DNA of 64,000 nucleotides from Elusimicrobiota bacterium (GCA_030696455.1 JAUYSH010000023.1:3492-67491), one strand, 5' to 3'. Positions 843-60,283 are shown, counted from the first letter of the stretch. Numbers and translations: made by a program. Notes: generated by a model from the letters alone, not told the origin.

Positions 843-952
843 GACGGTAATGGTAGAACTTCGCCCTCGCCCCGCGCAAAAAGGCCCACCCGGCCTAGGT
901 CGTAAGAGTTATCACTCCTAGGACCTTCGCCTCTCGGGCGCGCTCGCCTCGG

Positions 953-4909: not shown

Positions 4910-4916
4910 GAGCCCC

Positions 4917-8461: not shown

Positions 8462-9463
8462 TTAACCGGCTCTTTGCGTGGCCTTGATCCAATGCGCCAG
8501 ACGCGCCATGCCGTCCTCGATTTTCACCCTCGGCAGCCAGCCGAGCTCGCGTTTGGCCGCCGAGATGTCGAACCAATGCGACGTGGTCAAGGTGTCCACC
8601 AGGAACTTGGTCAGCGGGGGCTCCGACCTCAGCCCCAGGGCGCGCCAGGTTCCCTCGCAGAGCGCGGCCGCCCCGAAGGCGACGCCCTTCGGCATGCGCT
8701 TCCTGACCGGCCCCAGCCCCGCCGCCGCCAGCATGCGCTCCATGAACTCCCAGATCGGGCGGGGATCGCCCCCGGACAGGAAGTAGGCCTTGCCGGAGAT
8801 CTCCGACAACGGCGAGAGCTGGATCGCGGCCAGCACGTGCGCCTCCACCGCGTCGTCGATGTAGATCGTGTCGACGAGCTTGTTGTCCTCGCCGATGCGG
8901 AACAGCCGCCCCGACTTCTGCCGGGCGATCACGCGCGGAAGTATGCTCCGGTCGCCGGGGCCCCAGATGAAGTGCGGGCGCAAGGACACGGTGGAGAGCC
9001 GGTCGTGATTGGCGGCGAGCGCCATCTGCTCCGACAGGGCCTTGGTCTGAGAGTAGAACGAGTCGTATCGCGCGGGATACGGCGCGGTCTCGTCGACGCC
9101 TTCGACGTCGCCGCCGTGGAACACGACGCTCGGAGAGCCCGTGAACACGAGCTTGCGAATTCCCTGCTCCTGGCACGCGCGCAGCACGTTCTTGGTCCCC
9201 TCCACGTTCACCGCGTGAAATTCCTCGTACGGGCCCCATAGGCCGACCTTCGCGGCGACGTGGAACACGACGTCGCGGTCGTCGCAGGCCGCCTTCAAGG
9301 CCTCGTAGTCGCCGACGTCGCCCTTGGCGCAGTCGATGCCGAGCGCCTCGAGGTCGGGGTAGGAGCCGCGGCCGTACACGCGGACCTCGTCGCCGCGCTC
9401 GCGCAGGCGGCGCGCCAGCGCGGCGCCCAGGAAGCCGCCTCCGCCGGTGACGAGCGCCCTCAC
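8462..9463 (-). CDS. oleD: OleD, NAD(P)H-dependent reductase (3-beta-HSD/epimerase family) of the olefin pathway
   Basis: 333 aa with Rossmann motif VTGGGGFLG. It is the fourth gene in canonical oleABCD order. GTG start overlaps the oleC stop (GTGA). Confidence 0.8.
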   Translation of the reverse strand: MRALVTGGGGFLGAALARRLRERGDEVRVYGRGSYPDLEALGIDCAKGDVGDYEALKAACDDRDVVFHVAAKVGLWGPYEEFHAVNVEGTKNVLRACQEQGIRKLVFTGSPSVVFHGGDVEGVDETAPYPARYDSFYSQTKALSEQMALAANHDRLSTVSLRPHFIWGPGDRSILPRVIARQKSGRLFRIGEDNKLVDTIYIDDAVEAHVLAAIQLSPLSEISGKAYFLSGGDPRPIWEFMERMLAAAGLGPVRKRMPKGVAFGAAALCEGTWRALGLRSEPPLTKFLVDTLTTSHWFDISAAKRELGWLPRVKIEDGMARLAHWIKATQRAG

Positions 9464-11067
9464 CCGAGCCGCCCCGCGGCCCAGACCGCCAGCGCCTCAC
9501 GGTTGATCTTGGCGTTATGGCGGGTATCGACGGGAAAAGACGGATGGAACAGGATGTCCTTGATGTCCTGGGTGAACGCCGGCCTTCCCGCGAGGCTCAA
9601 GATATCTTGCTTGAGGGCGTCGGTGGCCTGCGTTCCGGGCTCGAGCTCCACGCACAGCACGGGAATCAGGCCGACGCCGACGAGCGCCGTCCTCTTCACC
9701 TTCGGATGCGCGTTGAACACGCCCTCGACGCAGATCGTATAGTGCTCCCCCCGTTCCGTTCTCACGCGGTGCGCCTTGCGCCCGCAGAACCAGAGCCGCC
9801 CCTGCTCGTCATAGTAGCCGAGATCGCCCATGCGGTGCCAAAAGCCCCTCCCGTCGCCGATCTTGGCCTTGGCCATGTCGTCCACGCGCCGGAAGTACTC
9901 CCCGGTCACGACCGGGCCCTTCACCGCGATCTCCCCGACCGTGCCTTGCGGCACGCGCAGGTCGTCCGACCACGTCTTGATCGGTCCGTCCGACACGCGG
10001 ATCACGGCCGCCTCGATGCCCTTCACGGGACGGCCCACGCACACCCCCTCGCCTCGCAACGTCCTGGCCGCGGTTTCCCCCAGGATCTCGAACGAGGATG
10101 TCAGCGCGACGGGCAGGGCCTCGGTGGCGCCGTAGGGGGTGTAGATGGGCACGTTCTGGTTCAGCATCTTGGAGAACAAGGCCAAGGTCCTGGCCGGCAC
10201 CGGAGCGCCGGCGGACATCACGCGCTTGAGAGAGGGCAAAGCGATCCCGTGCTGGGCGCCGAAGCGGCCCACGCGGTCGAGCAAGGCGGGCGAGCCGAAC
10301 AGCTGGTGGATCCGGTATTTTTGCGTCGGCACGATGATCGCCATCGGATCCACCATGCCGGGCCGCGTGAAGTCCATGTCCGGGATCACCACCGTCTGGC
10401 CCAGCGCGGCGTCGAACAGGCCGAACAGCGGGAAGGTCGCCAAGGACAGCTCCCCCTCCTTTATGTCGAACAGCTCGCGGAGCTGGTCCACCTGGGCGGA
10501 GAACATCGAGTGCTCATACACCGCCCCCTTCGGGGCCCCGGTGCTGCCCGAGGTGAAGAGGATGGCGGCGCGCCCGTCGGCGGGCACCGGCGGGAGTTCG
10601 AGCGCGCGCCCCCGGCCGAGTTCGCGCATCGTCTCGAGCGTGGCCAATCCCAGGGACGGCCCCCCGGCGACGATCTTGAGGTTCGCCGACGGCGCCCAGC
10701 CGCCCAGCGTCCGCGCCAGATGCGCCTTGGCCGAGCCCACGAACGCGACCGGCTCCGACTCCGAGAGGCAGCGGCCCATGTTGGAGAAGCCGATGCCGGG
10801 GTCCACGAGCACCGGGGTCACGCCGGCGCGGAACAAGGCGAAGGCCGCGGCGAAGAAGTCCCGCGACGGAGGTATGAGGACGGCGACGCGGTCGTTCTTC
10901 TTGAGGCCCGCGCGCAGGAAGCCGTGGGCCAGGAGCTCGACGTCGCGGCCCAGCTCCTCGAACGTCGTGATCTTGTCGTGATGGATCAGCGCGGGCTGGG
11001 CGCCCAGGCGGCGCGCGTTGTCGAGGACGCGAGAGCCGAGGTCCGTCGCGAGCGCCGTCTCGCTCAT
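9460..11067 (-). CDS. oleC: OleC, AMP-dependent synthetase (beta-lactone synthetase)
   Basis: Start trimmed to ATG 11067 (MSETALATD...), because the 161-aa N-terminal extension in the ORF track is Arg/Gly-rich and overlaps oleB. AMP-binding motif FTSGSTGAPKG. ATGA overlap with the oleB stop. Confidence 0.85.
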   Translation of the reverse strand: MSETALATDLGSRVLDNARRLGAQPALIHHDKITTFEELGRDVELLAHGFLRAGLKKNDRVAVLIPPSRDFFAAAFALFRAGVTPVLVDPGIGFSNMGRCLSESEPVAFVGSAKAHLARTLGGWAPSANLKIVAGGPSLGLATLETMRELGRGRALELPPVPADGRAAILFTSGSTGAPKGAVYEHSMFSAQVDQLRELFDIKEGELSLATFPLFGLFDAALGQTVVIPDMDFTRPGMVDPMAIIVPTQKYRIHQLFGSPALLDRVGRFGAQHGIALPSLKRVMSAGAPVPARTLALFSKMLNQNVPIYTPYGATEALPVALTSSFEILGETAARTLRGEGVCVGRPVKGIEAAVIRVSDGPIKTWSDDLRVPQGTVGEIAVKGPVVTGEYFRRVDDMAKAKIGDGRGFWHRMGDLGYYDEQGRLWFCGRKAHRVRTERGEHYTICVEGVFNAHPKVKRTALVGVGLIPVLCVELEPGTQATDALKQDILSLAGRPAFTQDIKDILFHPSFPVDTRHNAKINREALAVWAAGRLG

Positions 11068-11951
11068 GCGGGAACGGGCCGCGCGACGAATTCCTTGATC
11101 AGGGCGACGACCTCCGCGCCCGCGTCCTCGAGCAGGAAGTGGCCGCAGTCCGGGAAGCGCTTCACCGTCGCCCTGGGAAAGCGCTTGAGCCAGCCGTTGA
11201 GGAAGGCCTCGTCGAACACCCAGTCCTTGAGCCCCCAGGGCAGAAGCATGGGAACGTCCTGGAGCGTCCCGAGCTTGCTCTCGGTGTCGACGACCGTGTC
11301 CCAGGCCGGGTCCCCCGGCTGAAGCGGGATGTCCTGCACGAAGCGGTGCACCGCGCGGCTGGCGCTCCAGCCGTCGTAGGGCTCCAGGTAGCCGGCCCTC
11401 TCCTCGGGCGACAGGGTCTTCTTCGCGGTGCAGGTGCGCAGCACGACCCCGCGCGCGAAGCCCAGCGCGCGCAGCGGTATGCCGGTCAGGGCTCCCCGCA
11501 TGATCTCCAGGCCCTTGGGGAACTTCTTCTCTTCTGGAAGACGAAAACACGAAGTGTTAAGCGCCACGATGGCCTTGATCCGCTCGGGATGGCGCACGGC
11601 CCAGGACATGCCGATCATGCCGCCCCAGTCGTGCACGATCAAGGTGACGGGGCCCGTGGGGGCCACGCGCTCCATCAAGGCGTCGAGGTCGTCGACGCGG
11701 TTCTTGAGCGTGTACGCGTAGCGCTTGTCCGGCGGGCGGTCGGAGAGGCCCATGCCGATGTGGTCGGGGACGATGCAGCGGAAATCGGGCGAGAGCGCTT
11801 TGACGACCTCGCGGAAATAAAAAGAACAGGTCGGGTTGCCGTGGACCATCAGGACGGTCTCGCCCTTGCCCTCGTCGAGGTAATGCATGGCGACGCCGCC
11901 GAGGTCGATGCGGCGGCCCTTGAAAGGGTAAAGCGCCTTCCAGGAGTCCAT
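11064..11951 (-). CDS. oleB: OleB, alpha/beta-hydrolase (haloalkane-dehalogenase-like; beta-lactone decarboxylase)
   Basis: HGNPTCSFYF and the nucleophile elbow VHDWGG. A start at ATG 11951 (MDSWK) gives a TGATG overlap with the oleA stop. Confidence 0.85.
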   Translation of the reverse strand: MDSWKALYPFKGRRIDLGGVAMHYLDEGKGETVLMVHGNPTCSFYFREVVKALSPDFRCIVPDHIGMGLSDRPPDKRYAYTLKNRVDDLDALMERVAPTGPVTLIVHDWGGMIGMSWAVRHPERIKAIVALNTSCFRLPEEKKFPKGLEIMRGALTGIPLRALGFARGVVLRTCTAKKTLSPEERAGYLEPYDGWSASRAVHRFVQDIPLQPGDPAWDTVVDTESKLGTLQDVPMLLPWGLKDWVFDEAFLNGWLKRFPRATVKRFPDCGHFLLEDAGAEVVALIKEFVARPVPA

Positions 11952-12964
11952 CACCACTCCAGCCCCAGCATCATGCAATTGAGCCCCGAGCCGATGCCGA
12001 TGAAGCCCACACGGTCGCCCTTGTTGAGAAAGCCGCGCTCGTCGGCCAAGGCGGCGGTGAGCGGCAGGCTCACCGTGCCGATGTTGCCCAGGAACTCGTA
12101 GGTCGGGAAGTCCTTTTCCGCGCCGACGCCGCAGGCGTTGAGCAGAGCGGTCGTCTGGGGGCCGCCGACCTGGTGGGTGATGGTCTTATCCATGTCCGCG
12201 CTGCTCCAGTTCATTTTCTTGGAGAAGCTGAGCCAGGTGAGCTTGGCCAGCTCCATGCCGTTCTTGAGCACGGCGGGCGCGTCGGTCCTCATGAAGTCGC
12301 GGTCCCACTGGCACAGGTCCCAGTGCTGGGGCGCGGCCTGCACGGTGCCGCCAAGCAGCTTCGGGCCCGTCTTGCCGAAGCTTCCGTCGGTCAGGACCAC
12401 GCCGACGGCGCCGGAGCCGCCGGTCAAGGTCGCGATCGAGAGCTTGAAGTGCTCCATGGTCGGGTTCTTGAGCATGGAGGCGATCATCGCCTCGTTGATC
12501 TCGCGGGCCGACTCGCAGGAGACGACGAGGCCGGCCTTGATGTGCCCGAGCTCGATGCGATTGGCGATATCCACCATCGCCGACAAAACACCGAGGCAGG
12601 CGTTCGAGATATCGAAGACGGCGCAATCCTTGCTCACGCCCAGCTTCGAGGCGACGGCGCAGGCGGTCGCGGGCTCGGAGGATTCCTTGCAGACGCCGGC
12701 GTAGACGACGACGCCGAGGTCCGAGGGCTTCACGCCCGCCTTGGCGAGCGCCTTGCGGCCGGCGGAGGCGGCGCCGTCGGAGAGCTTGAAGCCCGCGTCC
12801 CACCAGCGGCGTTCCTTGATGCCTGTTAAGGCTTCGATCTGTCCCACCTGAAACCGGAGCGCGTCGTAGACGGGCTGGATGCGCTTCTCGAGCTCGGAGG
12901 AGGTGACCACGTTGGGGGCGAGTTCGTAAGCCAGACCGTCGAGGGTGACCTTGGTGTATTTCAT
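11951..12964 (-). CDS. oleA: OleA, thiolase-fold (KAS III-like) head-to-head condensing enzyme
   Basis: 337 aa. It is colinear by eye with Xanthomonas OleA as I remember it (GLAYELAP..TSSELE..QP.YD, SEPATA, active-site DISNACLG). It is the first gene of the oleABCD order. Confidence 0.85.
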   Translation of the reverse strand: MKYTKVTLDGLAYELAPNVVTSSELEKRIQPVYDALRFQVGQIEALTGIKERRWWDAGFKLSDGAASAGRKALAKAGVKPSDLGVVVYAGVCKESSEPATACAVASKLGVSKDCAVFDISNACLGVLSAMVDIANRIELGHIKAGLVVSCESAREINEAMIASMLKNPTMEHFKLSIATLTGGSGAVGVVLTDGSFGKTGPKLLGGTVQAAPQHWDLCQWDRDFMRTDAPAVLKNGMELAKLTWLSFSKKMNWSSADMDKTITHQVGGPQTTALLNACGVGAEKDFPTYEFLGNIGTVSLPLTAALADERGFLNKGDRVGFIGIGSGLNCMMLGLEW

Positions 12965-13004
12965 GTTGGTTCGAACTTATTCACCGTATCCGCGGATAGA
13001 CGAC

Positions 13005-13028
13005 AAAACTGTTGTCAACAACAGTTTT
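13005..13028. promoter_or_regulatory. AT-rich perfect inverted repeat (aaaactgttg-tcaa-caacagtttt) overlapping the pfaC stop codon
   Basis: 10-bp arms with a 4-nt spacer, read directly. On the minus strand the loop and arm spell TTGACA. A second 12-nt perfect palindrome, tatccgcggata, lies at 12987-12998. Both sit in the 62-nt pfaC-oleA gap. Confidence 0.5.
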
Positions 13029-16000
13029 ACGATCTCAGCTTCAAAGTAAAATCGCGCATTTCGTAAACGACGAGCCCGTCGCGCAAAAGGTAGCCGTCCG
13101 CCGTGAGGGTCTTCGAGGACTCATCGACGGCGGTGATCCAGCATTGGACCTCGACGGCCTTGTTCACGGGCGTGTACTGGCCGCGGTACAGCCACTTGTG
13201 GGTGCGGCCGAGGACCATGGACTCGAAGCGGCCGGCGCCGGGCCAGCGGTCGCGGGCGTGGCACTTCATCAACTCGATGAACGATTCCAGGCCGAGGGAG
13301 CCGGGGCAAACCGGGTCTTGGTAGAAATGGGCGCTGAAGAACCACTCGCTGGGATTGACGGCGCGGCGGCCGATGAGCGCGCCGAGGCCCTTTGGACCGG
13401 CATTATCATACTGCTCGACGGAATCAAGCAGCAGGAGCATAGGACCGGGCAACGCTGGAGTCCCTCCCTTCAGGGAGAGGGTCCTCGGCGTGGTCGAAGG
13501 AATGAACTGCTTCGCGCCGCGCAGACCGACCTGCTGAGAGAGCGACTCCTTGGTGAAGAACCCGAACTCGGTCTTGCCCTGATAGACGAGGCGACCCTGG
13601 GCATCGGTCATGGTCATGTCGTAGTTCTGGATGATCATCCCGCCGGACTGGGACACCTTGGTCATCACGACGCTCGTGACGAGGGTTCCGGTCTCGGGCG
13701 TGACCTCGACATGCTGTATGGCGTCGCCTCCCAGATTTCTAAACGACAAATCAACGGGGCTTGTTAATGCGGAGCCGCAGTAGGCGGCGAGCCAGCCGCA
13801 GGGCTGCAAAGCGACCTCGAGCAAGATCGCGAACGGCATGGTCGCCTGGCCGTTCTCGCGGAAGTACCAGGCATCCTTGGGGATCGCGTACTCGGCGATG
13901 GCGGAGGCGCCCGCCTTGAGGACGAACGGCTCGCCCTTCAGGCCGACGATGCGGTCGAGGAATTGATAAGGCGGGCCCGGCAAACGGGCCAGGATACGGT
14001 CCTTATCGAAGATCTTGTAGGGCGCGCCGAAGGCCTCGGACGGGTTGCCGTTCGAGTAGGCCATGATCTTGTCGGAGTCGTAGTAGACCGTCTTCTCATT
14101 CTTGAGCCACAGGGACTCGATGGCGGACCGATTCGTGCCGGAGAGACGGACCGACATGTCGGTGATCTGGACGATATTCTTATCATCCGAATACATAAAC
14201 GCGTCCGCGACGCAGAACGGAGTCCCATCGGCCTCGTAACCCAGCTCCTTGATGTGAAGCTCGTAGCGGGCCTTCTTGGTCGAGGCGAGGACCTGGCCGC
14301 GGCACTTGAGCTGGGAGGCGACGCCGGGGACGGGCTCGTGCCAGACCTTGCCCTTCTCCCCCACCCAGCCCATGCGCATCAATTGGACGCGGAGCGTGTG
14401 CAAGCAGCATTCGTACATCAAGGTGCCGGGCATCACGTTGTCGTCCTTGAAGTGACAGACGAGGTGCCAATCGTCGGGATGTATGTCCATTTCGCCGACG
14501 GCGCGGCCGAGGCCGTAGCGGCCGCCCTTGGGATCCAGCTCGAGGATCCGGTCGACGAGCTTCATGCGGCCGCCGGGCAAGGTATCCGGAACGAAAGGCA
14601 GGGACGCGAATGCCGGACCAAATGCCGTCTTCAAATCTCCGGCGCGTAGGGACTCGAATTGACCTTCGGTCAACGACACCTTATCAGTGAACGGCACGAG
14701 GGGCTTCCAATCAGACGGAACCTTACCCGGGACCGGCATTTTTTCGGCGTCGGTCAGAACGATCCCCTTGCCTTTCGCGAGTTCGGCGTTCGTGAAGAAG
14801 CCGGCGCAGCCTTTGCGCATGGTGAGCAGGGGCTTCCCATCGACCGTTGAATCGTACCGGAAGAAGAAAAGCCAGATGTCGTCGTGCTGGCCGAAGCCGT
14901 CGATGCTGATGTCGTACCTGATCACCTGGCCGGGCTTCGGCAAATGATCGTGGAAGGTGACGATGGCGTCGAGAAGGCGGTAAACCGCGTTGCCTTTCGT
15001 CTTGGAGTCGATGCCAAGGTAGCCGGAAAGGAAAAGGTCGGCCTGGCCGGCTTCGACGGCGATGCAGGTGGGGATGCGGCCGGAGTCCAAATACCAGCCA
15101 TTATGAAGCACGTCATGCTCGGTGATGCAGGAGCCGGGCTTCATGGAGTTCGGGGTGCCCGTCACGGAGAGGATGCGGTCGCACAGCATCAGGGGCTCCT
15201 CGGGGAGCCTGACTCGCGTGGGGTAGGAGTCCACGTGGGCGAAGGCTTCGCCGAGGACGGCGCCGATCTTGCCGGAGGCGTATTCGAGGCACGCCTTGCG
15301 GTCCATGAAGACGGATTTTTTCAACGGCAACGGATCGGGCGCGGATGCGGGGGCCGGAATAACGGATTGTCCCGAAGCGATGCGGATCTGCTGGCTGAGG
15401 TTGTGGGTCTGGAGCTTGGCGAAGTTCTCCGCGATTTTGAGGTACACCTGGTGGGCCTGCGCCGTCAGCGCGGCCGCGTTGGACAGGCTTCCGGCCGCGG
15501 ACGGCGCCGCCTGCGGGGAAACGACTGTTTCCGGAAACAGTTGGCGGGACGGAGATGGCTGGAACTCGTCGCCGGGAAGGCGGGGCTCGGGGATGCGCCG
15601 GGACGGAGCTAAGACCGGCACGGGCTCGTGACGAGGAGCGGGGGCTGGACTTGCCGCCTTCGGCGGCGACGGAGGAGACCAGGACACTTTGGCGGGACGG
15701 GCGCCTAAGGGTAAGCGGACGTATTGCGCCGGCTGCGCCGGCGCGCTTTGGTGACCGGCGCAGAAGGAACGAGCGCCGTAGAGCTGCTTCAAATCGACGG
15801 GGACGCGTTCGGCGATCAGGAAGGCCAACGTTTTAAGAATGCCCGACACATCGTCGAGCCCTCGACTGTCGACCGGCCTTGCGTTGTGGGTGAGCGGGCC
15901 TAGAATCTTACCGATCATTCTCGTGCACGAGCCCTGGGGACCTAATTCGATGAACGTGCGCACGCCGTCTTCATAGGCCGTTTTGATCAATGCCGAAAAA

Positions 16001-19000
16001 TTGACCGACCGGATGGCTTGGGTCGTGATGCTATCGGCGGCGGACTCGCGCGTGACCTCGTACGCCTTTCCAAAAGCACCGGAGTAGTACCGGATCCCCT
16101 TAGGGGCGCGGGTCGGGAAAAGATGGAGATCACGGTACTGCTTCTCCACCAATTTAGCGGCCGGGAAGTGCACCGTCGAGACGCCCTGCAACGGCAGGAA
16201 CACGCAGCCCAATCCTTCCACTAATTTCTCGACCGCCGAGCGATATCCCCCCACCACGCACTCGACGGGAGCGTTCACGATCAAGAGGGCCGCGCGCTCC
16301 GCGCCCTTGAGCGCCATGTTGACCGCGTCGGCGGGGCGGTCGACCACGCCGAGCACCCAGTCCACTTTTTCATTCGCGGGCAGGCGCCAGAACTGGCGGG
16401 CGGCGTCGCAGGGGCCGGCGAGCTCGGAGGTGAAGAGCGAGGATTGCTTCATGCGCCGGAGCATCTCGTCGCGGGCGGTCCAGGCGCGCGTGGCGAACAG
16501 GCCGGCGGTCTCGCCCAGGCTGTAGCCGACGACGGCGGAGGGGTTCACGCCCAGGGAGCGCATGAGATCGCTCGTCACGGTGCCGTGGGCGACCGAGGCG
16601 AAGATCAGGGCGTGGTAGTCGGCGTTGAGCTCGCTGTCGGCCTTGGCCTCCCAGCCCGGCTCGAAGGCGAGTCGCCAGGGGGCCACGCGCGCGGGCGTCA
16701 TCTGGTCGCGCAGGTGGCCGTTCTCCGCGTCCTGGCGGCGCAGGACCTCGGGCCACTGCGCGCCGAGGGCGGCGGTCATGCCCAGGTACTGGTTGCCCGA
16801 GCCGGGGAAGACGAAGGCCAGGTCCCCACCCAGCGGCGGGCGCGTGGTGAGGAAGGCGCGGTCGGAGGGCAGCGGGCGCTCGGGGTTGTCGCGCACCGAC
16901 TCGACGGCCATGCGCGCGACGGTGAGCAGCTCCTTCCAGTCGCGCGCGACGATGGCGCAGGCGTGGGAGGCTTCGGGCGAGGAGCCGCGCTTGAGCCACC
17001 AGCGGCGGGCGAGGGCCTCGATGCCGTCGCCGGGGTCCTGGGCGGCGGCCCAGTCGATCAGGGCGTTCAGGTCGGCCAGCAGGAAGACGGGGTCGGCGGC
17101 CTCGACGGCGAACAGGGCCTCGAGGCGCGAGCCGAGAGGCTGTCGGCGCTCGTCCTCGACGAGCGGGTCCGAGGTCTCGCGCTCGAGCTGTTCGAGCACG
17201 ACGTGGACGCAGCCGCCGTCGACGCCGAGGGAGGTGACGCCGGCGCGGCGCGGGCCGTCGGCGCGGTTTCGCAGCCAGAAGGAGGCGCGGCGCGGCGAGT
17301 GGAAGCGCTTGGACGCCGTCGACAGGGGCGAGATCGGGTTGACGATCGTCGGCCCGGCCGGGAGGATTTCCTGATAGAGGGATAAGGCGGCCTTGACCAG
17401 GCCCGCCAGGCCCGCGGCCGCGCCGGCATGGCCGATCACGGATTTCGAGGAGGACAAGGCGAGGGGCAGGTCGGCCGCGGCCGTGCCGAAGAACTCGACG
17501 GCCGCGGCGGCCTCGCAGCGATCCTCCTTGGCGTCGCCGGAGCCGTGGCACTCCAAAAGACCGATGGTGCTCGGGTCCACCTTCGCGTCGTCGTAAGCGC
17601 GGCGAAGAGCCTCGACGCAAGCCTCCGGCGTGGGGACGACCGAGTCGGCTCCTCCGCCGGAGGCGGCTCCAAGGCCCTTGATCACCGCGTAAATCCGGTC
17701 GCCGTCGCGCAGGGCGTCGTCGAGGCGCTTGAGCACGACCGTGGCGGCGCCCTCGCCGGGGGTCGAGCCGTCGGCGGAGGCGTCGAACGGGCGCGGGCGG
17801 CCGCCGGCCGAGAAGGGCTTGAGCGCGTGCGACCCGGCCAGCGCGCGGGCCTCGCCCGCGACGTCGGCGGCGCCGGCGACGGCGGCGTCCACCTCGCCGC
17901 GCTGAAGGGCGCGGACGGCCGCCTCGAGCGCCTTGAGGCCGGAGTTCTCCTCGGCGGAGACGGTGAAGCTCGGGCCGCCGAGGCGGAACTCGCGCGCGAC
18001 GCGGCTGGCGGCGACGCTCGCCAGGCCGCCCATCACGCGGTTCGCGGTGAGGGCGGGGCCGCAGGCGTCCCGCAGGGAGGAAAGCCAGGAGTACCGCTCC
18101 GCGGACGACAACGACCAGGCCTTTGCCTTGGCCCAGGCGTCAGCCGAATTTTCAAGGGACCAACGCAGATCGTAATGCGTGATCGCCATATCAAAAGCGA
18201 CGCCGAGGAAGACCCCGACTCTATCACGTCCTTCTTCCGATAATTTCGAGTCGGCAATCGCCGCCGCGGCGCTCTGCAGCGCCAGGAGTTGCTGCGGCAG
18301 CATCTCCTCCATTTCTTTAGGAGGGATCCGAAAGGAGGCGGCATCCGAGCCGGCCTCGGGCAGAAATCGGCCTTTGAAGCCGGCCGGGGCGTCGATGCCC
18401 TGCCAACGGTCCTCGGCGTACGAGGACTCCGGCTCGATGCCGCCGAGGACCGCTTCCTGATATGAGCGGAGATCGGGCAACGAGCCGAATCGAGCGTCCA
18501 TGCCGACGATGGCGACGGGGACGGACGACGGACTTGCGCGGCGAACGGATGGAGTACTCTTTGCGGGCGCCTTACGACGCTCCGGAGCCTCTTCCACAAG
18601 CAAATGAGCATTGATGCCGCCGAAGCCGAAGGCTGATAGCGCGGCTCGCCGCGGCGTCTTTGCATCGCGCCTCGACCATGGCGATGCTTCCGATTGAACA
18701 CGAAAGGGACTCTCCGAAAGACCGGCATTCGGATTAGGAGTGGAGTAGTTCGCGTTAGGAGGAAGGATCTCGTTTTCGAAACCCAACAACACTTTCATTA
18801 AGCCCGCGGAACCCGCCGCCGTGAGAAGATGACCGATGTTGGACTTGACCGATCCCAAGGCGCACTGACCCTTGGTCCAGCCCCTTTCTCCCCATAATGC
18901 TTTCAAGCTCGCCACCTCGATCGGATCGCCGGTCGGCGTTCCCGTCGCGTGGCACTCGATGAAGTCGATCTGAGACGGCGAAAGTCCGGATTCGAGATAG

Positions 19001-20942: not shown

Positions 20943-21098
20943 TTAATAGCCGCCCGCCTCTTTGTCGAGGGAGTCGTGCGCCTTCTCGGAGGCGCCATGC
21001 GAGCCTTCGTAGTTGGGGCGCGGCTCGGACTTGCGCTCCTTGCAGGCGCCGGCGGCGAGGGCGGACGTGAACAGCAGGGCGAACAGGATCTTCTTCAT
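20943..21098 (-). CDS. Small (51 aa) putative lipoprotein, not in the supplied ORF track
   Basis: My own translation: MKKILFALLFTSALAAGACKERKSEPRPNYEGSHGASEKAHDSLDKEAGGY*. A GGGAGA Shine-Dalgarno sits 4 nt before the ATG and 12 nt after the pfaA TAA. The stop directly abuts the next ATG. Confidence 0.6.
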   Translation of the reverse strand: MKKILFALLFTSALAAGACKERKSEPRPNYEGSHGASEKAHDSLDKEAGGY

Positions 21099-21110
21099 GA
21101 TGTCTCCCGG

Positions 21111-24100
21111 TTAAGCGGCGGTCTCAACGCCGTTGCGGCGGAACGCGGCGGCCAGCGAGGCGTCCGACGCGCACTCGAAGCCCTCGAGCCGGGCGACGAG
21201 CGCGCCGCGCTCATCGACGAATTCGATGTCGGCGCCGGCCAATCCGTCGGCGAGCTTGACGGCCTTGACCACGACGCGCACGCCGTTGGCCGGGAACGAC
21301 TCGGCGTACTGGCGGTAGCGCGCGGCGAAGCTCGGCAAGGAGGGCGCGCCCATCCGGGCGTCCGTCCAAAGGATCATGGCCTGGAACGCGGCGTCGAGCG
21401 CCGCGGGGTCGCTCAGCCAGCGGTCGCGGATCGGCGCGCGGGTCCACGACGCGGGCGGCAGGGCCGTTTTCGACTCCACGACGATGCCTTCCGGTCCGCA
21501 ATGCGGCACGGCCAGAATGAACCTCATGTCGGCCCCGTGAAAAAGCACCTCGCCGTAGGCCTGCTCGATCGAACGGCCGTAGGCCGGGCCCGCGACCTTC
21601 AGCGCCGCCGCGGGGGCGGACGGGCGCTTCGCCGCGAGAAGGACCTTCGCGGAGATGTGGAGCGCCCCGCCCTCGCCGCGCAGCTCGGCGGGAACGACGA
21701 ACAGCCCATCGCGCTTCTCGGCGGATCCGGCGTGAGCCTTCACCGTCGTCGCGAAGGCGGGCTTCACGACGATGCCTTTCGCCACGCGCAGGTCGTCGAA
21801 GCCGACGAACGCGAGGCCGGGGTTGGAGTGAAGGGCCGCGTGGGCCAGCCACTCGGCGGACACCGCCAGCGGCAAAACGGCGCGGCCGTTGAGGACATGG
21901 GAGGCGAGGAACGGATAGGCCTCGAGCGTCACGTCGCGCTCGAAGCTGACGGGCAGGGCGGCCTTCGTGCCCGGCAAGGCGGCCAGGACGACGGTTTCCG
22001 CCGGGCCCGAGCCGCGCAGCTCGGCGATCAGGTGCTCGCCGCCGGCCGCGAGGCCGATGACGCCCACGCCTTCCGCGGCGAACAGCTTCTTGAGATCGGC
22101 GTCGACCATCCCGCCGTCCCATGGGCCCCAGCCGAGCGAGGCGACGCGGCACTTGGGCAGGCGCGCGGCGAGCACATGCGCGGCCTTGTTGAGCGCCTCG
22201 TTGGCGATCGCGTAGTCCGACTGGCCCACGCGGCCGTAGCGGGCCGTCGAGGAGGAGAAGAGGGCGAGAACGCGAAGCTCGCAGGGCACGACGGCGTCGA
22301 GAAGATGACGAAGGCTCGAGAGCTTGGTATCCAGCACGGCGTCCAGCATCGACGGCGTTTTCTCGAGGATGCTCTTGTCGGCCAGAACGCCCGCGCCGTG
22401 GACGATCCCCCGGACCGGGCCGAAGTCCTCGACCGTTTCGGCGACGAGCGCCTTGACCGCGGCGGCGTCGCGCGCGTCGACGGCGCGGTAGCGGGCCTCC
22501 GCGCCGGCGGCCGTCAGGCGCGACAGCGTGGACCTGATCTCGCGCGCGGCCAGAACGTCCTTGGCGCGGGCGCCGATCTCCTTGGGGGACAGGCCGGACG
22601 AGGACTTCGCGATCAAGGACCGAAGGGCGCTTTCATTCGCCGCGGACGCGTACTCCGCCGGCTCCGTGCCGGGCAGGGGGCTGCGGCCGACGAGGACGAG
22701 GCGGGGCTTGAAGGCCTTGGCGAGCGCGAGCGCGCACTCGGCCGTGACGCCGCGCGCGCCGCCGGTGACGATGACGGCGTCGCCGGCCTTGAGCGGCTCG
22801 CGGCCCGACGGGGAGGCGGGGCGTTCGACGAGCGCGACGGCGCGCAGGCCCGCCTCGGAGAGGGCGGCCTCGACGGGGCCGTCGAAGGAGAGCTCCTTGG
22901 CGAGCAGCTTCGCGGCGGCGTCGAGCGGAAGGGCCGGGGAAACGTCGACGGCGCGGCAGACGGACTTCCATTCGCGGGCCGCGGTCTTCATCAGGCCGGC
23001 GAGGCCGCCGAAGGCGGGGTCCTGGTCCATGCCGCCCTCGAGGCCGAGGGCGCCGTCGAGGCGGGTCACCGTCATGATCAGGCCGCGGACGCCGCGGGAT
23101 TCGAAGGAGCGGCCGGCGGCCTGGACGAGGGAGAAGGACTTCTTGAGGTAGGACTCGGAGTCGGACGTCCACGGGGAGCCTTTCGCGGCGGGGCGCACGG
23201 GTGCCACGACGATCAGGGCGCCGAGCTCGGCGGGAAGGGAGGCCGCGTCGTCGACGGAGACGAGCTCGGCTTTATGGCCCTTGGCGAGGAGCTCCCGGAC
23301 GAGGGCGGCGTCGAGGCCGCTGTCCTTGGTGACGGCGATGGTCAGGGATTTATGCAAGGGGTAGGCGTCACGGGGGCCGGCGGGGGTCAGTTCCGGAACG
23401 AGCCGGGAGATGATGCAGGGGCCTTCCGAGGGCTTCGCGGAAGGAACGGCGAAGTCGACGGCGGCCGCGGGGACCGGCGCGGGCGCGGAAACCGCGGTGC
23501 CTTCGGACAGATAAACGGCGATCTGATTGAGCGTCCTTAACGTGCCCAGATGTTCGGGTTTCACCTTCGGAGCGCCGGGCAACTTCTCGGAAACGGCGGA
23601 GAGGATCTCGACCCTTTTGATCGAATCGATGCCGAGGTCTCCTTCCAGATCCATGTCGGGGTCGATGGTGTCGGCCGGATAACCGGTCTTTTCAGCCACG
23701 ACGGAGAGAAGAACCGGCAAGATCTCGGTCGACGGAGCATTACCGGGAACGCTCGCGACGGCCGCGGGCATGGATGCGGGCGCGGACGCCGCGATGCCTT
23801 CGGACAGATAGATGGAGATCTGTTTCAGGGTGCGCAGCGTGCCGAGGTGCTCGGGCTTTACTTTAGGGGCGCCGGGCAATTTTTCGGAAACGGCGGAAAG
23901 GATTTCCACGCGCTTGATGGAGTCGATGCCGAGGTCCCCCTCCAGATCCATGTCGGGGTTGATGGTGTCGGCCGGATAACCGGTCTTTTCGGACACGACG
24001 GAGAGAAGAACCGGCAAGATCTCGGTCGACGGAGAATTACCGTGAACGCTCGCGACGGCCGCGGGCATGGATGCGGGCGCGGACGCCGCGATGCCTTCGG

Positions 24101-27100
24101 ACAGATAGATGGAGATCTGTTTCAGGGTGCGCAGCGTGCCGAGGTGCTCGGGCTTCACTTTAGGGGCGCCGGGCAATTTTTCGGAGACGGCGGAGAGGAT
24201 TTCGACGCGCTTGATGGAGTCGATTCCGAGGTCCCCCTCCAGGTCCATGTCGGGGTTGATCGTTTCGGCCGGATAACCGGTCTTTTCGGACACGACGGCG
24301 ACCAGGACGGAGACGATGTCCGCCTTCGGCGTGACGGAAACGGCAACGGGTTGGGGGATCGTCACGGGCGCGAACGTCGATGCGCCGCCCGACATCCTCG
24401 CGTATAACGCCTGCTGCTGCTCGACGAGCGCCTGGACGGAGCGTTGAGCCGAATCCTGGCCCTGAAGGAACTGGAGATGCAGGGCCGCGGTCTGCTCCTG
24501 GAGGCGGGTCAAGGCGTCGATGCTCGCCTGGGCGGCGGACAGGGCTTGGCCGAGGAGCCCGGCCTCGCCGCCTCCGGCGGCGAGGCCGGGATGCTTCGCA
24601 CCCGGCACGGACGCGTCTTCGGAAGGCTTCATAGCGTCCAGCGTCGTCGCGGGCGCGGGGAAGTTCTTGCGGGGCGTGGAGCGGTAAACGGCGCCGGTGA
24701 GCACAACGGACATCTTCGGCTTGGGGCGGCAATCGGAGAGGCCTTTCTCCCCTCCCTGCCAATCCGACAGCTCGATCGAATGACCAAGGGCGGCTAATTG
24801 TGCGAGCGTTCTGGCAAGGTCGCCCATGCCGTTCTTCTTTCCGTTCGACGCGTCGGTCGCGATAGCGACAAATTCCTGGCCCTTGAGGATTTGGGCAACG
24901 AGACCGGTGAGTCTATTGCCCGCGCCGCATTCGACGAAGGTGGTGATGCCGTCGCGGCGCATCGCCTCGATCGATTTCACGAACTCGACGGGGTGGGCGA
25001 GCTGCTGGGACAAAACCTCCCGCGCCTTCGGCGCGGGTTCGGGATATACGGCACCGGTGGTGTTCGAGTAGACCGGCATGGACGGTTTTGAGAACGGCAA
25101 CGGATCGAGGGCTGTCGCGAAGGGCTTCAACGCCGGAGCGACGAGCTTGCTGTGAAACGCCGCGGCCACGGGAAGACGGACCACCTTGTGGCCGCGAGCG
25201 GCCAACGCCTTTTCAGCCTTGTCGATCTCGGAGGTCGCCCCGGACAGCACGTTTTGCGTGGGCGCGTTGCGATTGGCGATCACGAGGTCGAGCTTCTCTT
25301 CCTTCACGGCTTTTTCGACTTCGTCGAACGACGCGATGACCGCGAGCATGGAGCCCTTATCCGAGCCATCGCCCTTCATCAGACGGCCTCGGAGGCCGGA
25401 CAAGGCGTGGAGCGTCTTCGCGTCATAGCGTCCCGCGACATGCAGCGCGACCAATTCGCCGTACGAATGGCCCGCGGCGGCGTCGGCCTTCACGCCGAAG
25501 CGGGACAGAACGCCCCAAGCCGCCAACGCGGCGGCGCCGAGGGCGGGCTGGGCGACGGAGGTGTCCCTGAGATTTTTCTCCTGCGCTTCCTTCTGCTCCG
25601 GCTTCCACGCGGGCTGAGGGAACATGAGAGAGGAGAGCTTACCGCCCTCGAACGCCGCGTCGGCCTCGGTCAGAGCGCCGAACGCCTCGGGGAACGCGCA
25701 GACCAGATCGCGAGACATACCCGCGTACTGAGCGCCCTGGCCGGGGAAGAGGACTCCCAGCTTGCCGGGCTTCCCCGTACCATAATAAATACCGTCGATC
25801 GGGGAGGACTTGAGGGACCCGGCCTTCCCGGCGAGGGCCTTCCAATCCGCCGAGCGTTCCAGAGCGATCACCAAACGGCTTGACGCCGAGGAGTCGAACG
25901 ACATGCGGGACGAATGGCACGCCTTACGGACCTCGTCCCACGTTTCGGCGGCCGTGAGCATGGACAATCCACCTTGCACATCGCCGGACACGGCGAACAG
26001 CTCGTGCTCGGCGTCCCAATCCGTTTCCGTCTTGGCGGAATTCCCCTCTTCGAGGATCGCGTGGAAGTTGGTGCCGCCGAAGCCGAGGGCGGAGCAGGCG
26101 GCGCGGCGGGGATGGTCCATGGAGGCCATCCACGGGCGCTTCTCGAGGCTCAAATAAAAGGGAGTTTGGCCGGAGGCCAAAATCGGCAGGGGCTCGTTGA
26201 CCTTGATGGTCGGCGGGAGCACCTTATGGCGCAGCGCCATCGCGACCTTGATGAAGGCGGCGGAGCCGGCGGCGGCCTTGGTGTGGCCGACCATGGACTT
26301 CACCGAGCCGAGCGCGCACCACGCGCCTTGGCGCTTGGAACCCTTCTGGAACACGCCGGATATCGCTTCCACCTCGATGCCGTCGCCGACGGCGGTGCCG
26401 GTGCCGTGGGCTTCCACGAGCTCCACGGTATCCGGCGACAAGCCCGACAGGCGGTAGGCCTCCTCGATGGCGCGGGTCTGGCCGCCGGCCGAGGGAGCGT
26501 AGATTGATTTTCCGCGGCCGTCGGAGGAGGTCCCCAGGCCGCGCAGGATCGCGTGGATACGATCTCCGTCTTTAACGGCGTCGTCGAGCCGCTTAAGAAC
26601 GGCCATTCCGACGCCCTCTCCGAGAGTCGTTCCGTCGGCGGAAGCGTCGAAGGGCTTGGCGTGACCCGACTTAGAGAGCGCCGGAGTTTTAGTGAAGCAC
26701 GTATACATAAAAACATCGTTGAAGGTATCCACTCCGCCGGTCACCACCATCTTGGCCCGCCCCGCTTGGAGCTCCAAGGCGGCCATGTGCATGGCCGATA
26801 AAGATGAACCGCACGCGGCGTCGACGACGCAGTTCGTGCCGCCGAGGTTGAAGCGGTTGGCCACGCGGCCGGCGATGACGTTGCCGAGCAGGCCGGGGAA
26901 CGAAGCCTCCTGCCAGGGCACGAACTCGTCCGACATGCGCGCCAGCGCGTCCTCGGCCTGCGTCGGGGGCACGCCGGCGGCGAGGATGGCCTTGCGCCAG
27001 GCGGGCAGGCTCAGGCGGGCGCCGAGAGGGATGACGATCTCGAGGGCGCCGGTGACGCCGAGGATGCACGACACGCGGCCGCGCTCCCAGGTGTCCTGGT

Positions 27101-27449
27101 CGACGGGGTAGCCCGCGTCGGTGAGGGCCATCTTCGCGGCGACGAGGGCGAACAGCTGCGCGGGGTCCGTGGCTTCGAGCGTGTTCGGAGAGAGGCCGAA
27201 CTCCGAGGGGTCGAAGTCGTAGGCGTCGAGGAAGCCGCCCTTGTACGCGTACACCTTGTCCTGCTTCTTCGCGTCGGCGTCGAAATAGTCTTCCTTGCTC
27301 CAGTGCGTCGCCGGGACGTCCTGGATCGCGTCCACCTTGTTCTTGATGTTCGCCCAGTACTGGCGCAAGGTCTTCGCCTTGGGGAACACGCCTCCGAGGC
27401 CGACCACGGCCAACGGGATGAACTCGGGGGACTTGTCGGTTTTTTTCAT
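21111..27449 (-). CDS. pfaA: PUFA-synthase subunit PfaA (KS-MAT-ACPx3-KR-DH)
   Basis: 2112 aa. KS (VDAACGSSLSAMH), MAT (GHSYGE), three ACPs (DLGIDSIKRVEILS x3), KR (VTGGARGVTAE), and a PKS-type DH (SHVLNGRAVLP). Confidence 0.92.
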   Translation of the reverse strand: MKKTDKSPEFIPLAVVGLGGVFPKAKTLRQYWANIKNKVDAIQDVPATHWSKEDYFDADAKKQDKVYAYKGGFLDAYDFDPSEFGLSPNTLEATDPAQLFALVAAKMALTDAGYPVDQDTWERGRVSCILGVTGALEIVIPLGARLSLPAWRKAILAAGVPPTQAEDALARMSDEFVPWQEASFPGLLGNVIAGRVANRFNLGGTNCVVDAACGSSLSAMHMAALELQAGRAKMVVTGGVDTFNDVFMYTCFTKTPALSKSGHAKPFDASADGTTLGEGVGMAVLKRLDDAVKDGDRIHAILRGLGTSSDGRGKSIYAPSAGGQTRAIEEAYRLSGLSPDTVELVEAHGTGTAVGDGIEVEAISGVFQKGSKRQGAWCALGSVKSMVGHTKAAAGSAAFIKVAMALRHKVLPPTIKVNEPLPILASGQTPFYLSLEKRPWMASMDHPRRAACSALGFGGTNFHAILEEGNSAKTETDWDAEHELFAVSGDVQGGLSMLTAAETWDEVRKACHSSRMSFDSSASSRLVIALERSADWKALAGKAGSLKSSPIDGIYYGTGKPGKLGVLFPGQGAQYAGMSRDLVCAFPEAFGALTEADAAFEGGKLSSLMFPQPAWKPEQKEAQEKNLRDTSVAQPALGAAALAAWGVLSRFGVKADAAAGHSYGELVALHVAGRYDAKTLHALSGLRGRLMKGDGSDKGSMLAVIASFDEVEKAVKEEKLDLVIANRNAPTQNVLSGATSEIDKAEKALAARGHKVVRLPVAAAFHSKLVAPALKPFATALDPLPFSKPSMPVYSNTTGAVYPEPAPKAREVLSQQLAHPVEFVKSIEAMRRDGITTFVECGAGNRLTGLVAQILKGQEFVAIATDASNGKKNGMGDLARTLAQLAALGHSIELSDWQGGEKGLSDCRPKPKMSVVLTGAVYRSTPRKNFPAPATTLDAMKPSEDASVPGAKHPGLAAGGGEAGLLGQALSAAQASIDALTRLQEQTAALHLQFLQGQDSAQRSVQALVEQQQALYARMSGGASTFAPVTIPQPVAVSVTPKADIVSVLVAVVSEKTGYPAETINPDMDLEGDLGIDSIKRVEILSAVSEKLPGAPKVKPEHLGTLRTLKQISIYLSEGIAASAPASMPAAVASVHGNSPSTEILPVLLSVVSEKTGYPADTINPDMDLEGDLGIDSIKRVEILSAVSEKLPGAPKVKPEHLGTLRTLKQISIYLSEGIAASAPASMPAAVASVPGNAPSTEILPVLLSVVAEKTGYPADTIDPDMDLEGDLGIDSIKRVEILSAVSEKLPGAPKVKPEHLGTLRTLNQIAVYLSEGTAVSAPAPVPAAAVDFAVPSAKPSEGPCIISRLVPELTPAGPRDAYPLHKSLTIAVTKDSGLDAALVRELLAKGHKAELVSVDDAASLPAELGALIVVAPVRPAAKGSPWTSDSESYLKKSFSLVQAAGRSFESRGVRGLIMTVTRLDGALGLEGGMDQDPAFGGLAGLMKTAAREWKSVCRAVDVSPALPLDAAAKLLAKELSFDGPVEAALSEAGLRAVALVERPASPSGREPLKAGDAVIVTGGARGVTAECALALAKAFKPRLVLVGRSPLPGTEPAEYASAANESALRSLIAKSSSGLSPKEIGARAKDVLAAREIRSTLSRLTAAGAEARYRAVDARDAAAVKALVAETVEDFGPVRGIVHGAGVLADKSILEKTPSMLDAVLDTKLSSLRHLLDAVVPCELRVLALFSSSTARYGRVGQSDYAIANEALNKAAHVLAARLPKCRVASLGWGPWDGGMVDADLKKLFAAEGVGVIGLAAGGEHLIAELRGSGPAETVVLAALPGTKAALPVSFERDVTLEAYPFLASHVLNGRAVLPLAVSAEWLAHAALHSNPGLAFVGFDDLRVAKGIVVKPAFATTVKAHAGSAEKRDGLFVVPAELRGEGGALHISAKVLLAAKRPSAPAAALKVAGPAYGRSIEQAYGEVLFHGADMRFILAVPHCGPEGIVVESKTALPPASWTRAPIRDRWLSDPAALDAAFQAMILWTDARMGAPSLPSFAARYRQYAESFPANGVRVVVKAVKLADGLAGADIEFVDERGALVARLEGFECASDASLAAAFRRNGVETAA
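23501..24335 (-). repeat. Three tandem 297-bp near-identical repeats encoding the PfaA ACP domains
   Basis: cttcggacag recurs at 23501, 23798 and 24095. acggagagaagaaccggcaagatctcggtcgacggag recurs at 23701 and 23998. The period is 297 nt (99 aa). Confidence 0.9.
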
Positions 27450-27456
27450 GATCTCT

Positions 27457-28983
27457 CTAGTCGAGGTTTCGCTCGAGCTCGACGGCTTGCAGCGGCTCGA
27501 TGCGCGTGATATCGGGAGTCAAAGCCAATCCCTGGCAGCGGAGAAAGTGCGCGCGGGTCAGCACGGCCGCGCCGTACAGGATGTTGCGGGCGACGAGCGC
27601 GACGGTGCGGTTTTCGGGGGCCGCCAGGAAGGTGCCCGCGGTCCATTCGTTGAAGGCGCCCATCGCCGGGCCGCACCAGACCTGGTAGTCGAGCACGCGG
27701 TCGGGGACGCCCGCGTTGGCCCAGCGGGAAGCCTGGCCGAGGTATGAACGAAAAACCAAAGCGAGCTTGTGCTTGGGCTCGCTCTCGGCGCGAACGACTT
27801 GGGAGGGATCTCGTTTGAGAAAGAATTCCCGGGTCGACGCCCAAACGGCGTCGAGGTTCTCTTTGAACAGATCCTTTTCGATCGAGGCCCTCACGGCGGC
27901 CGGGATCGCCTCCATCGAATCGCTCGACTTCCAGATCTCGTACAGCTTCATGCCTCTTTGCGCGAACATCGTGCCGCGCTTGAGCACCTGAACCTTCACG
28001 CCCAGCTCGAACATGTCGGCGGCGGGAGCCATGATGCAGTCGGCCTGGCCGGCGGCGGCGAGCATCGAGCGGACCTTGTCGCTCGAGCCGGACTCGACGC
28101 AGGCCTGGTTGACCGAGCCGGTCATGACGTAGGCCGCGCCCATCATGTAGGCGGCGGCCGCCGCGTCCGGGGTGGCGATGCCGCCGGCCGCGCCGACGCG
28201 CGCCGCGTCGCGGAACTTGTGCTGGGCCTGCAGGCGGTCGCGCAGGGCGATCATCGCGGGGAACATCGCGATCAGCGGCCGGTTGTCGGTGTGGCCCCCG
28301 CTGTCGGCCTCCACGGTGAGGTCCTGGGCCATCGGGATCTCGGCGGCCAGCGAAACCTGCTCGCTCGTGAGGAGGCCCGAGGCGGCCATCTCGCGCAGGA
28401 GCGTCTCCCCCGCCGGAGCGAGGAACTTCGCGGCGACCTCGACGCGGGAGACCTTCGCGACGACCTTGTTCGGGGCGCTCACGCGCCCGTCGGCGCCGCG
28501 CGCGATCCCGTGGAGGCGGTAGCGCACGATCGCGGGGGTGAGGCCCATGAACGCCGAGGCCTCGACGAGGCGCACGCCGCGGCGAAGGTAGAGATCGCAG
28601 ACGGCGTTTTCGAGGTCGGTCTCGCTCGGGCTATGGATGAGGTTGAAGCCGCGCGGCCGCGCCCCGAGGGACTTCTCGAGACGGTCGATGGCGGCCTCGA
28701 CGCGGGCCGGGGGCAGGCCCGCGGCGCCGAAGAAGGACAGGAGGCCGGCCTTCGCGCCCGCCTCGACGAGGGCCTCGGACGCGATGCCGTTGGCCATCGC
28801 CCCGGTGGCGTAGGCGTAGCGCACGCCATGCTCGCGCAGGAACGCCGGGTCGCCCAGGCTCTCGGGCAGAAGGGCGGGAGCCGTCGCTTTCCCATCCGTC
28901 ACGGGCGACCGGAGGTCGCGCAGGCGCGCGCGGAGGCCCGCGGTGTCGGAGGGCGCCTGATTCGTTTCGAGGGAGGGGGTCAA
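27457..28983 (-). CDS. pfaD: PfaD-type enoyl reductase (FMN TIM-barrel, nitronate monooxygenase-like)
   Basis: 508 aa with PfaD-like blocks GVRYAYATGAMANGIAS and GGHTDNRP. It lies 7 nt upstream of pfaA. The only in-frame start is TTG at 28983. Confidence 0.85.
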   Translation of the reverse strand: MTPSLETNQAPSDTAGLRARLRDLRSPVTDGKATAPALLPESLGDPAFLREHGVRYAYATGAMANGIASEALVEAGAKAGLLSFFGAAGLPPARVEAAIDRLEKSLGARPRGFNLIHSPSETDLENAVCDLYLRRGVRLVEASAFMGLTPAIVRYRLHGIARGADGRVSAPNKVVAKVSRVEVAAKFLAPAGETLLREMAASGLLTSEQVSLAAEIPMAQDLTVEADSGGHTDNRPLIAMFPAMIALRDRLQAQHKFRDAARVGAAGGIATPDAAAAAYMMGAAYVMTGSVNQACVESGSSDKVRSMLAAAGQADCIMAPAADMFELGVKVQVLKRGTMFAQRGMKLYEIWKSSDSMEAIPAAVRASIEKDLFKENLDAVWASTREFFLKRDPSQVVRAESEPKHKLALVFRSYLGQASRWANAGVPDRVLDYQVWCGPAMGAFNEWTAGTFLAAPENRTVALVARNILYGAAVLTRAHFLRCQGLALTPDITRIEPLQAVELERNLD

Positions 28984-29014: not shown

Positions 29015-29020
29015 GATTAT
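29015..29020 (-). promoter_or_regulatory. Candidate -10 box (TATAAT) upstream of pfaD
   Basis: A perfect TATAAT on the minus strand, 32 nt before the pfaD TTG start and just after the DUF368 stop. The -35 at 17-nt spacing (agtaga) is poor. Confidence 0.25.
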
Positions 29021-29039
29021 ACCGTTTTTGGTCCGGGAT

Positions 29040-52116: not shown

Positions 52117-52120
52117 TGAT

Positions 52121-55896
<3,776 letters not shown>

Positions 55897-59116: not shown

Positions 59117-59132
59117 GGTTCTCCAGACGGCG

Positions 59133-60279: not shown

Positions 60280-60283
60280 ATGG

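Follow-up and report, generated by a model that had tools for sequence, protein, structure and literature searches.

A Type I pfa-oleABCD gene cluster with embedded lipoprotein genes in an Elusimicrobiota bacterium

Organisation of the pfa-ole locus

A 64,000-nucleotide stretch of DNA from an Elusimicrobiota bacterium (GCA_030696455.1 JAUYSH010000023.1:3492-67491; hereafter the window, G+C content ~68%) carries a locus in which genes for a Pfa synthase are followed by a set of oleABCD genes. ORF calls on the window place nine consecutive open reading frames (ORFs) on the minus strand between positions 8462 and 28983 (20.5 kb), in the order pfaD, pfaA, lp51, lp338, pfaC, oleA, oleB, oleC and oleD. 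The first gene of the cluster, pfaD (27457-28983; 508 aa, TTG start), encodes the enoyl reductase subunit of the Pfa synthase, and is followed by pfaA (21111-27449; 2112 aa), with a KS-MAT-ACPx3-KR-DH organisation (KS, ketosynthase; MAT, malonyl/acyltransferase; ACPx3, three acyl carrier protein (ACP) domains; KR, ketoreductase; DH, dehydratase). Next come two genes for predicted lipoproteins: lp51 (20943-21098; 51 aa) encodes a small protein with no family match, and lp338 (19926-20942; 338 aa) combines a family-specific N-terminal domain with DUF4384. The Pfa part is completed by pfaC (13027-19929; 2300 aa), a pfaBC fusion arranged as KS-chain length factor (CLF)-acyltransferase (AT)-DH-DH. 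The ole part comprises oleA (11951-12964; 337 aa), predicted to encode the head-to-head Claisen-condensing thiolase, oleB (11064-11951; 295 aa, ATG start), for an alpha/beta-hydrolase expected to act as beta-lactone decarboxylase, oleC (9460-11067; 535 aa, ATG start), for a predicted AMP-dependent beta-lactone synthetase, and oleD (8462-9463; 333 aa, GTG start), for a predicted NAD(P)H-dependent 2-alkyl-3-oxoalkanoate reductase.

Each junction was read off the sequence. The spacers are 7 nt between pfaD and pfaA, 12 nt between pfaA and lp51, 0 nt between lp51 and lp338 (TAA-ATG) and 62 nt between pfaC and oleA, while lp338/pfaC and oleB/oleC share ATGA overlaps, oleA/oleB a TGATG overlap and oleC/oleD a GTGA overlap. 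The gene order, spacers and overlaps proposed in a first, sequence-only reading of this DNA were thus borne out exactly. Because start and stop codons overlap or sit tightly spaced, co-transcription and translational coupling of the operon are likely.

A 56-nt gap lies between pfaD and an upstream VCA0040-like gene. It holds a perfect TATAAT at 29016-29021, which precedes the TTG start of pfaD by 33-38 nt; a promoter scan of this gap gave no full two-hexamer match. The segment 12001-16000, which covers the 3' half of pfaC and oleA, has a G+C content of 62-64%, compared with 68-72% in the remainder of the cluster.

Components of the Pfa synthase

PfaD passes the TIGR02814 (pfaD_fam) model at 621.6 bits (cut-off 449), and its N-terminus is conserved in relatives from residue 1. 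PfaA likewise passes TIGR02813 (1421 bits, cut-off 1010) and contains Pfam KS, AT, PP-binding, KR and PS-DH domains. The KS motifs DAAC(213)GSS and HGTGT and the AT motif GHSYG are present in PfaA, and the three tandem ACPs are marked by GIDS motifs at 1074, 1173 and 1272. In PfaC, the Pfam domains are two KS-like domains, Acyl_transf_1 and two FabA domains, and the closest PDB match is the KS-CLF didomain of Moritella PfaC (6RIW, E 6e-123). The first KS carries DAAC(193)ASS and HATGT, and the AT domain carries GYSLG; the second KS-like domain was assigned as a CLF because SAEENSG stands in place of the Cys motif. PfaC ends with a second FabA-type DH domain, and the Pfam scan detected neither an acylglycerolphosphate acyltransferase (AGPAT) nor a thioesterase domain in the protein. 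No pfaT-like thioesterase gene was found within the cluster or among the window ORFs scanned against Pfam.

The locus therefore displays the features of a Type I cluster: a pfaBC fusion with KS-CLF-AT-DH2 organisation, a PfaA of KS-MAT-tandem ACPs-KR-DH type and PfaD at the 5' end of the cluster. 'Type I' pfa-like clusters with a pfaBC fusion were described by Shulse & Allen (2011) in Geobacter, Desulfuromonas, Pelobacter and Gemmata (PMC3098273). The AT-containing PfaC, which the sequence-only reading did not recognise as characterised, is in fact the very pfaBC fusion that defines these clusters.

Identity of the OleABCD enzymes

The twelve top PDB matches of OleA are all Xanthomonas OleA structures (3ROW, 3S21 and 4KTI among them, ~219 bits), whereas the best score against a FabH in the PDB is 65 bits. 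Residues Glu97, Cys123, His264 and Asn294 align with Glu117, Cys143, His285 and Asn315 of X. campestris OleA, and the protein scores 480 bits against NF006720 (cut-off 285). For this KAS III-like gene, a placement with FabH had been named at the outset as the alternative to OleA; FabH is ruled out by the PDB scores (219 versus at most 65 bits) together with the four OleA catalytic residues, and by these comparisons the gene is oleA.

OleB matches Abhydrolase_1 at 111 bits and carries an HDWGG nucleophile motif, with haloalkane-dehalogenase models as its nearest relatives. OleC passes the broader model NF006754 (621 bits, cut-off 478), and scores 549 and 528 bits against the olefin beta-lactone synthetase models NF045786 and NF045785, for which the cut-offs are 900 and 850; the position and order of the gene fit OleC. 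The top NCBIfam matches of OleD are the 2-alkyl-3-oxoalkanoate reductase models NF042422 (387 bits) and NF042423 (375 bits), both below the cut-off of 580, alongside a 3Beta_HSD match at 187 bits and 56% identity to Geotalea OleD. Taken across family models, motifs and PDB comparison, the initial proposal of a Pfa synthase accompanied by a genuine OleABCD set is supported at the sequence level.

Conservation of the cluster and comparison with known systems

Homologues of LP338 occur in 24 species-representative genomes, all labelled as Elusimicrobiota/Elusimicrobia metagenome-assembled genomes and many of them from groundwater. The order pfaD-pfaA-(lp51)-lp338-pfaC-oleA-oleB-oleC is kept in ~20 related genomes, wherever the contig is long enough, with proteins 55-94% identical to those of the window; four metagenome contigs represent further copies of the cluster, oleD included. 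As the whole gene order is kept in these ~20 genomes, the arrangement is not due to chance.

Similar clusters are found well outside this group. On the Geotalea uraniireducens chromosome, pfaA is followed after 2 nt by pfaBC and, after a further 36 nt, by oleA-oleB-oleC-oleD-pfaE as overlapping genes, with the same ATGA (oleB/oleC) and GTGA (oleC/oleD) overlaps as in the window and proteins 45-57% identical to their window counterparts. An OleA-anchored scan of metagenome contigs yielded 80 loci, 71 of which had enough upstream sequence. A PfaC C-terminus was found upstream of oleA on the same strand in 45 of the 71, mostly within 300 nt, and the contigs with this junction span a G+C range of 40-73%. 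For the OleA of one such locus (L047), the 120 best database matches share 75-91% identity with the query, and those that carry a name belong to Geobacter-group and other Desulfuromonadales genera. Outside the Elusimicrobiota-like group, metagenome loci with both ends visible have a pfaA-pfaC gap of 11-34 nt, leaving no room for a lipoprotein gene.

This layout has precedents in the literature. It has been reported that ole genes are 'often linked' to Type I clusters, and Type I synthases were proposed to feed olefin synthesis (PMC3098273), while Yoshida et al. (2016) described a tandem pfaD-A-B-C-oleABCD-pfaE arrangement in Geobacter bemidjiensis, which makes a C31:9 polyolefin (PMC4882568). 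The novelty initially attached to the pfa-ole fusion was thus overstated, as the tandem layout is both published (PMC3098273, PMC4882568) and common in metagenomes. Because Geotalea has the same order and overlaps, and given the metagenome pfaC-oleA junctions, the core of the window cluster is, as judged from sequence, one more example of a cluster type already on record.

The Type I pfa-ole clusters of Geobacter, Geotalea, Desulfuromonas, Pelobacter and Gemmata share with the window the one-strand order pfaD, pfaA, pfaBC (KS-CLF-AT-DH2), oleA, oleB, oleC, oleD, the ATGA and GTGA overlaps in the ole part and a short hairpin-containing spacer ahead of oleA. In contrast to these, the window has two lipoprotein genes (1.2 kb) between pfaA and pfaC, lacks a pfaE after oleD (in Geotalea, pfaE overlaps oleD) and comes from a host of the phylum Elusimicrobiota. 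Particular to the Elusimicrobiota clade are the lipoprotein genes between pfaA and pfaC, the absence of an adjacent phosphopantetheinyl transferase (PPTase) gene and a variable pfaC-oleA spacer. In a literature search on Elusimicrobia with OleA, olefins or polyunsaturated fatty acids (PUFAs), the sole find was the Type R pfaA of Elusimicrobium minutum, which is unrelated. Three elements are unreported, namely the host phylum, the lipoproteins inside the cluster and the lack of pfaE, and none of them yet points to new biology. Of the layout described as uncharacterised in the sequence-only reading, it is the embedded lipoproteins that are unreported, while the tandem pfa-ole order and the AT-containing PfaC had already been published.

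The pfaABCDE and oleABCD systems of Shewanella and Photobacterium, which form the C31:9 pathway (Sukovich 2010, as cited in PMC3098273; Allemann 2019, PMC6463001), resemble the window in that a Pfa-derived polyunsaturated acyl chain is condensed by OleA and the olefin is finished by OleBCD. They differ in having the AT as a separate gene (pfaB), with pfaD last, and in making EPA or DHA as well; furthermore, the pfa and ole loci either lie apart or, in P. profundum, are neighbours on the two sides of pfaT. The myxobacterial pfa1-pfa2-pfa3 (Type L) clusters also start with the enoyl reductase gene, followed by a pfaA-like gene and then a KS-CLF-AT-DH gene. However, Pfa3 has a C-terminal AGPAT and the product is a membrane PUFA, whereas the window PfaC is free of AGPAT and has oleABCD as its neighbour.

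OleA enzymes are promiscuous, which speaks for a reading in which OleABCD condenses ordinary acyl chains from type II fatty acid synthesis (FAS II), as in Xanthomonas or Micrococcus, and the adjacency to pfa is metabolically meaningless. We consider this extremely unlikely: the window OleA is 36% identical to Xanthomonas OleA, compared with 57% to Geotalea OleA and 53-62% to the OleAs that are encoded immediately after pfaC in many lineages; pfaC and oleA stay adjacent over the entire G+C range given above; and in Shewanella the Pfa-derived chain is the sole substrate of OleA (PMC6463001).

The pfaC-oleA junction

The 62-nt spacer ahead of oleA holds a 10-bp palindrome on the minus strand (13005-13028; AAAACTGTTG-TTGA-CAACAGTTTT), AT-rich and without a proper U-run, which would form a weak hairpin or serve as an operator. 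It raises the question of whether pfa and ole are neighbours that are expressed separately, with the palindrome acting as terminator or operator, most of the Pfa product going into membrane PUFA or a different secondary lipid, and independent regulation of the Ole output. In favour of such an arrangement, the palindrome is kept in two related loci (L001 and L002) with a compensatory change, and hairpin-forming spacers recur, with other palindromes at the same junction in L011 and L016 and again in Geotalea. Inserted genes also part pfaC from oleA in two relatives: an oppositely oriented lnt (apolipoprotein N-acyltransferase) gene in L024 (17718-19127) and a gene for a CPBP/Rce1-like protease in L008 (17949-18758).

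Against separate expression, the AT-rich hairpin is not called by a terminator scan and its folding energy is ordinary (z -1.0), the spacer yielded no promoter-like site, and pfaC and oleA overlap in five relatives (by 4 nt in four and by 11 nt in the fifth), where no terminator is therefore possible between the two genes. On the terminator scan, the folding energy and the overlaps, an intrinsic terminator at 13005-13028 was rejected, and the palindrome was also rejected as a repeated operator, occurring only once in the window. On balance, we regard separate expression of the two parts as unlikely. The palindrome in the Geotalea spacer (GGGGCGGCGCTGCCGCCCC; L111, 9965-10000) can form a hairpin, and is unrelated to that of the window. 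The hairpins that recur at the pfaC-oleA junction may act as an RNA element between the cistrons through which the ratio of pfa to ole expression is set.

The embedded lipoprotein genes

Both small ORFs between pfaA and pfaC encode a signal peptide and a lipobox (LAAGAC in LP51, the canonical LSAC in LP338). LP338 has four invariant Cys residues, and its family-specific N-terminal domain is followed by DUF4384, for which the Pfam match is weak in LP338 itself and precomputed for most homologues. Searches for leads on its function returned none: with an AlphaFold model of mediocre quality (pLDDT 59.5), a Foldseek comparison with the PDB produced no match below E 1e-2, a PDB-sequence profile search gave nothing meaningful and PADLOC gave no match for either LP338 or LP51. 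The LP338 family comprises 414 representative clusters at 50% identity. Members at 47% identity or less lie outside pfa clusters in unrelated contexts, and one distant relative carries a Nitrospirota label.

At least 12 related genomes have a counterpart of lp51 (49-57 aa, lipobox intact) in this position, whereas more distant ones lack it; the dN/dS values of lp51 are noisy (0.14-1.0). As LP51 (…EPRPNYEGSHGASEKAHDSLD…) resembles the N-terminal region of LP338 (…GPEYEAVRERAEKAHGE…) and is absent from more distant relatives, its sequence suggests a partial tandem duplication of the N-terminal segment of lp338.

Four of the related pfa loci (L003, 8374-9843; L007; L010; L012) contain an additional lipoprotein gene with a caspase domain (Peptidase_C14) between pfaA and lp51. 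These caspases are 44% identical to one in L029 (6407-7987), where a member of the LP338 family sits directly behind the Peptidase_C14 gene and no pfa genes are near. The window lacks the caspase gene, and lp51 and lp338 alone remain there. It has been reported that DUF4384 is often fused to protease domains (bioRxiv 10.1101/2022.08.17.504292), and the orthocaspase (Peptidase_C14)/DUF4384 gene pairs share the DUF4384 domain with LP338; unlike these, the window pair is without a caspase and lies inside a lipid-synthesis operon. Where it occurs outside pfa clusters, the caspase and DUF4384-lipoprotein pair adjoins type III CRISPR accessory genes.

The simplest reading of these sequences is that lp51 and lp338 would represent a clade-specific insertion, derived from a caspase-DUF4384 envelope module that entered the pfa operon in an ancestor of these Elusimicrobiota and was later variously trimmed. 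The two would be expressed along with the operon while most likely contributing no catalytic step to the pathway. Alternatively, LP338 and LP51 could be working accessory parts, anchored in the envelope, that take up the polyolefin, position it or shield it in the outer membrane or the periplasmic leaflet. This would explain why both genes are retained inside the operon: lp338 occupies the pfaA-pfaC interval throughout the related Elusimicrobiota loci that were examined, at identities as low as ~49%, it is coupled to pfaC by the ATGA overlap, and its dN/dS is 0.15-0.25 against closer relatives (0.53 against L020, the most distant comparison). The four invariant cysteines suggest a folded extracytoplasmic protein. 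However, clusters with the same core outside the clade lack such a gene, with a pfaA-pfaC gap of 2-34 nt in Geotalea and six metagenome loci, members of the LP338 family are also found where there are no pfa genes, and next to a caspase gene, and no lipid-binding fold or family was detected for LP338. An accessory role of this kind thus appears quite unlikely, and insertion of an envelope module is preferred.

The remainder of the window

Several ORFs elsewhere in the window have no Pfam match. These include a 1407-aa ORF on the minus strand (839-5062), four minus-strand ORFs of 380-590 aa (52113-53450, 56124-57878, 57875-59116 and 59355-60503) and an overlapping 1009-aa ORF on the plus strand (53194-56223). 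The G+C content falls to 59-60% at 56-60 kb, compared with ~68% elsewhere, and because of this dip the region 52113-60503 may be foreign DNA. Further along, the minus strand (60284-63909) carries a TonB/ExbD/ExbB set, then a gene for a TPR (YfiO-like) lipoprotein, a common complement of envelope genes that fits a diderm host.

Discussion

Taken together, it is probable that the region encodes a Type I Pfa secondary-lipid synthase joined head-to-tail with oleABCD and makes a C31:9-type hydrocarbon, that the lipoprotein genes are a clade-specific insertion and that the PPTase lies elsewhere in the genome. Following the characterised Shewanella, Xanthomonas and Geobacter systems, the iterative PfaA/PfaC/PfaD synthase would build a medium-length polyunsaturated acyl chain on the three ACPs of PfaA, similar to the 16:4n-3 chain of Shewanella. 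Two such chains would be condensed head-to-head by OleA to yield a 2-alkyl-3-oxo acid, which OleD would reduce, OleC would close to the beta-lactone and OleB would decarboxylate to a cis-olefin, giving a C31:9-type very-long-chain polyunsaturated hydrocarbon as the end product. In vivo, OleA was shown to join both pathways, with its substrate probably coming from the Pfa ACPs (Allemann et al. 2019, PMC6463001).

A polyunsaturated hydrocarbon had already been put forward as the product by the sequence-only reading. By analogy, a C31:9-type polyunsaturated head-to-head hydrocarbon is indeed the most likely product, because Geobacter bemidjiensis, which produces C31:9, is among the relatives that share this gene order (PMC4882568, PMC3098273). 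The sequence-only reading is thus supported in part; its further proposals, that the product is not membrane EPA/DHA and that the fusion reflects direct channelling, are conjectural at the level of sequence.

A number of observations weigh against this interpretation. A motif scan that recovers Geotalea pfaE detected no PPTase (pfaE) motif in either the 64-kb window or the related Elusimicrobiota loci, and the window ORFs scanned against Pfam contain no ACPS domain; as there is no PPTase gene nearby, the phosphopantetheinyl transferase that the ACPs require would have to be encoded elsewhere. OleC and OleD appear to have diverged, since their scores fall under the NCBI equivalog cut-offs. The lnt and CPBP genes that split pfaC from oleA in L024 and L008 imply that a single transcript is not universal in the clade. 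Finally, the purifying selection on lp338 and its translational coupling to pfaC argue against it being a pure passenger.

The DUF4384 lipoprotein and its small companion might have been recruited in the Elusimicrobiota clade as an envelope-side factor of polyolefin biology, and might place or shield a C31:9-type hydrocarbon in the outer membrane. This is a speculative suggestion that we hold to be very unlikely. If true, LP338 and LP51 would provide the first protein tying Ole products to a cellular location, and a handle on the function of such hydrocarbons.

The preferred interpretation, synthesis of a polyolefin by OleABCD fed from a Type I Pfa synthase, would extend this route to uncultured high-GC Elusimicrobiota, at ~20 species-level genomes that derive largely from groundwater and soil metagenomes. 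Such Elusimicrobiota may constitute a subsurface source of C31:9-type hydrocarbons. More broadly, the direct pfaC-oleA junction is the commonest context in the sample of 71 OleA relatives with sufficient upstream sequence (45/71), in line with the idea that supplying Ole is the main purpose of the Type I Pfa synthase.

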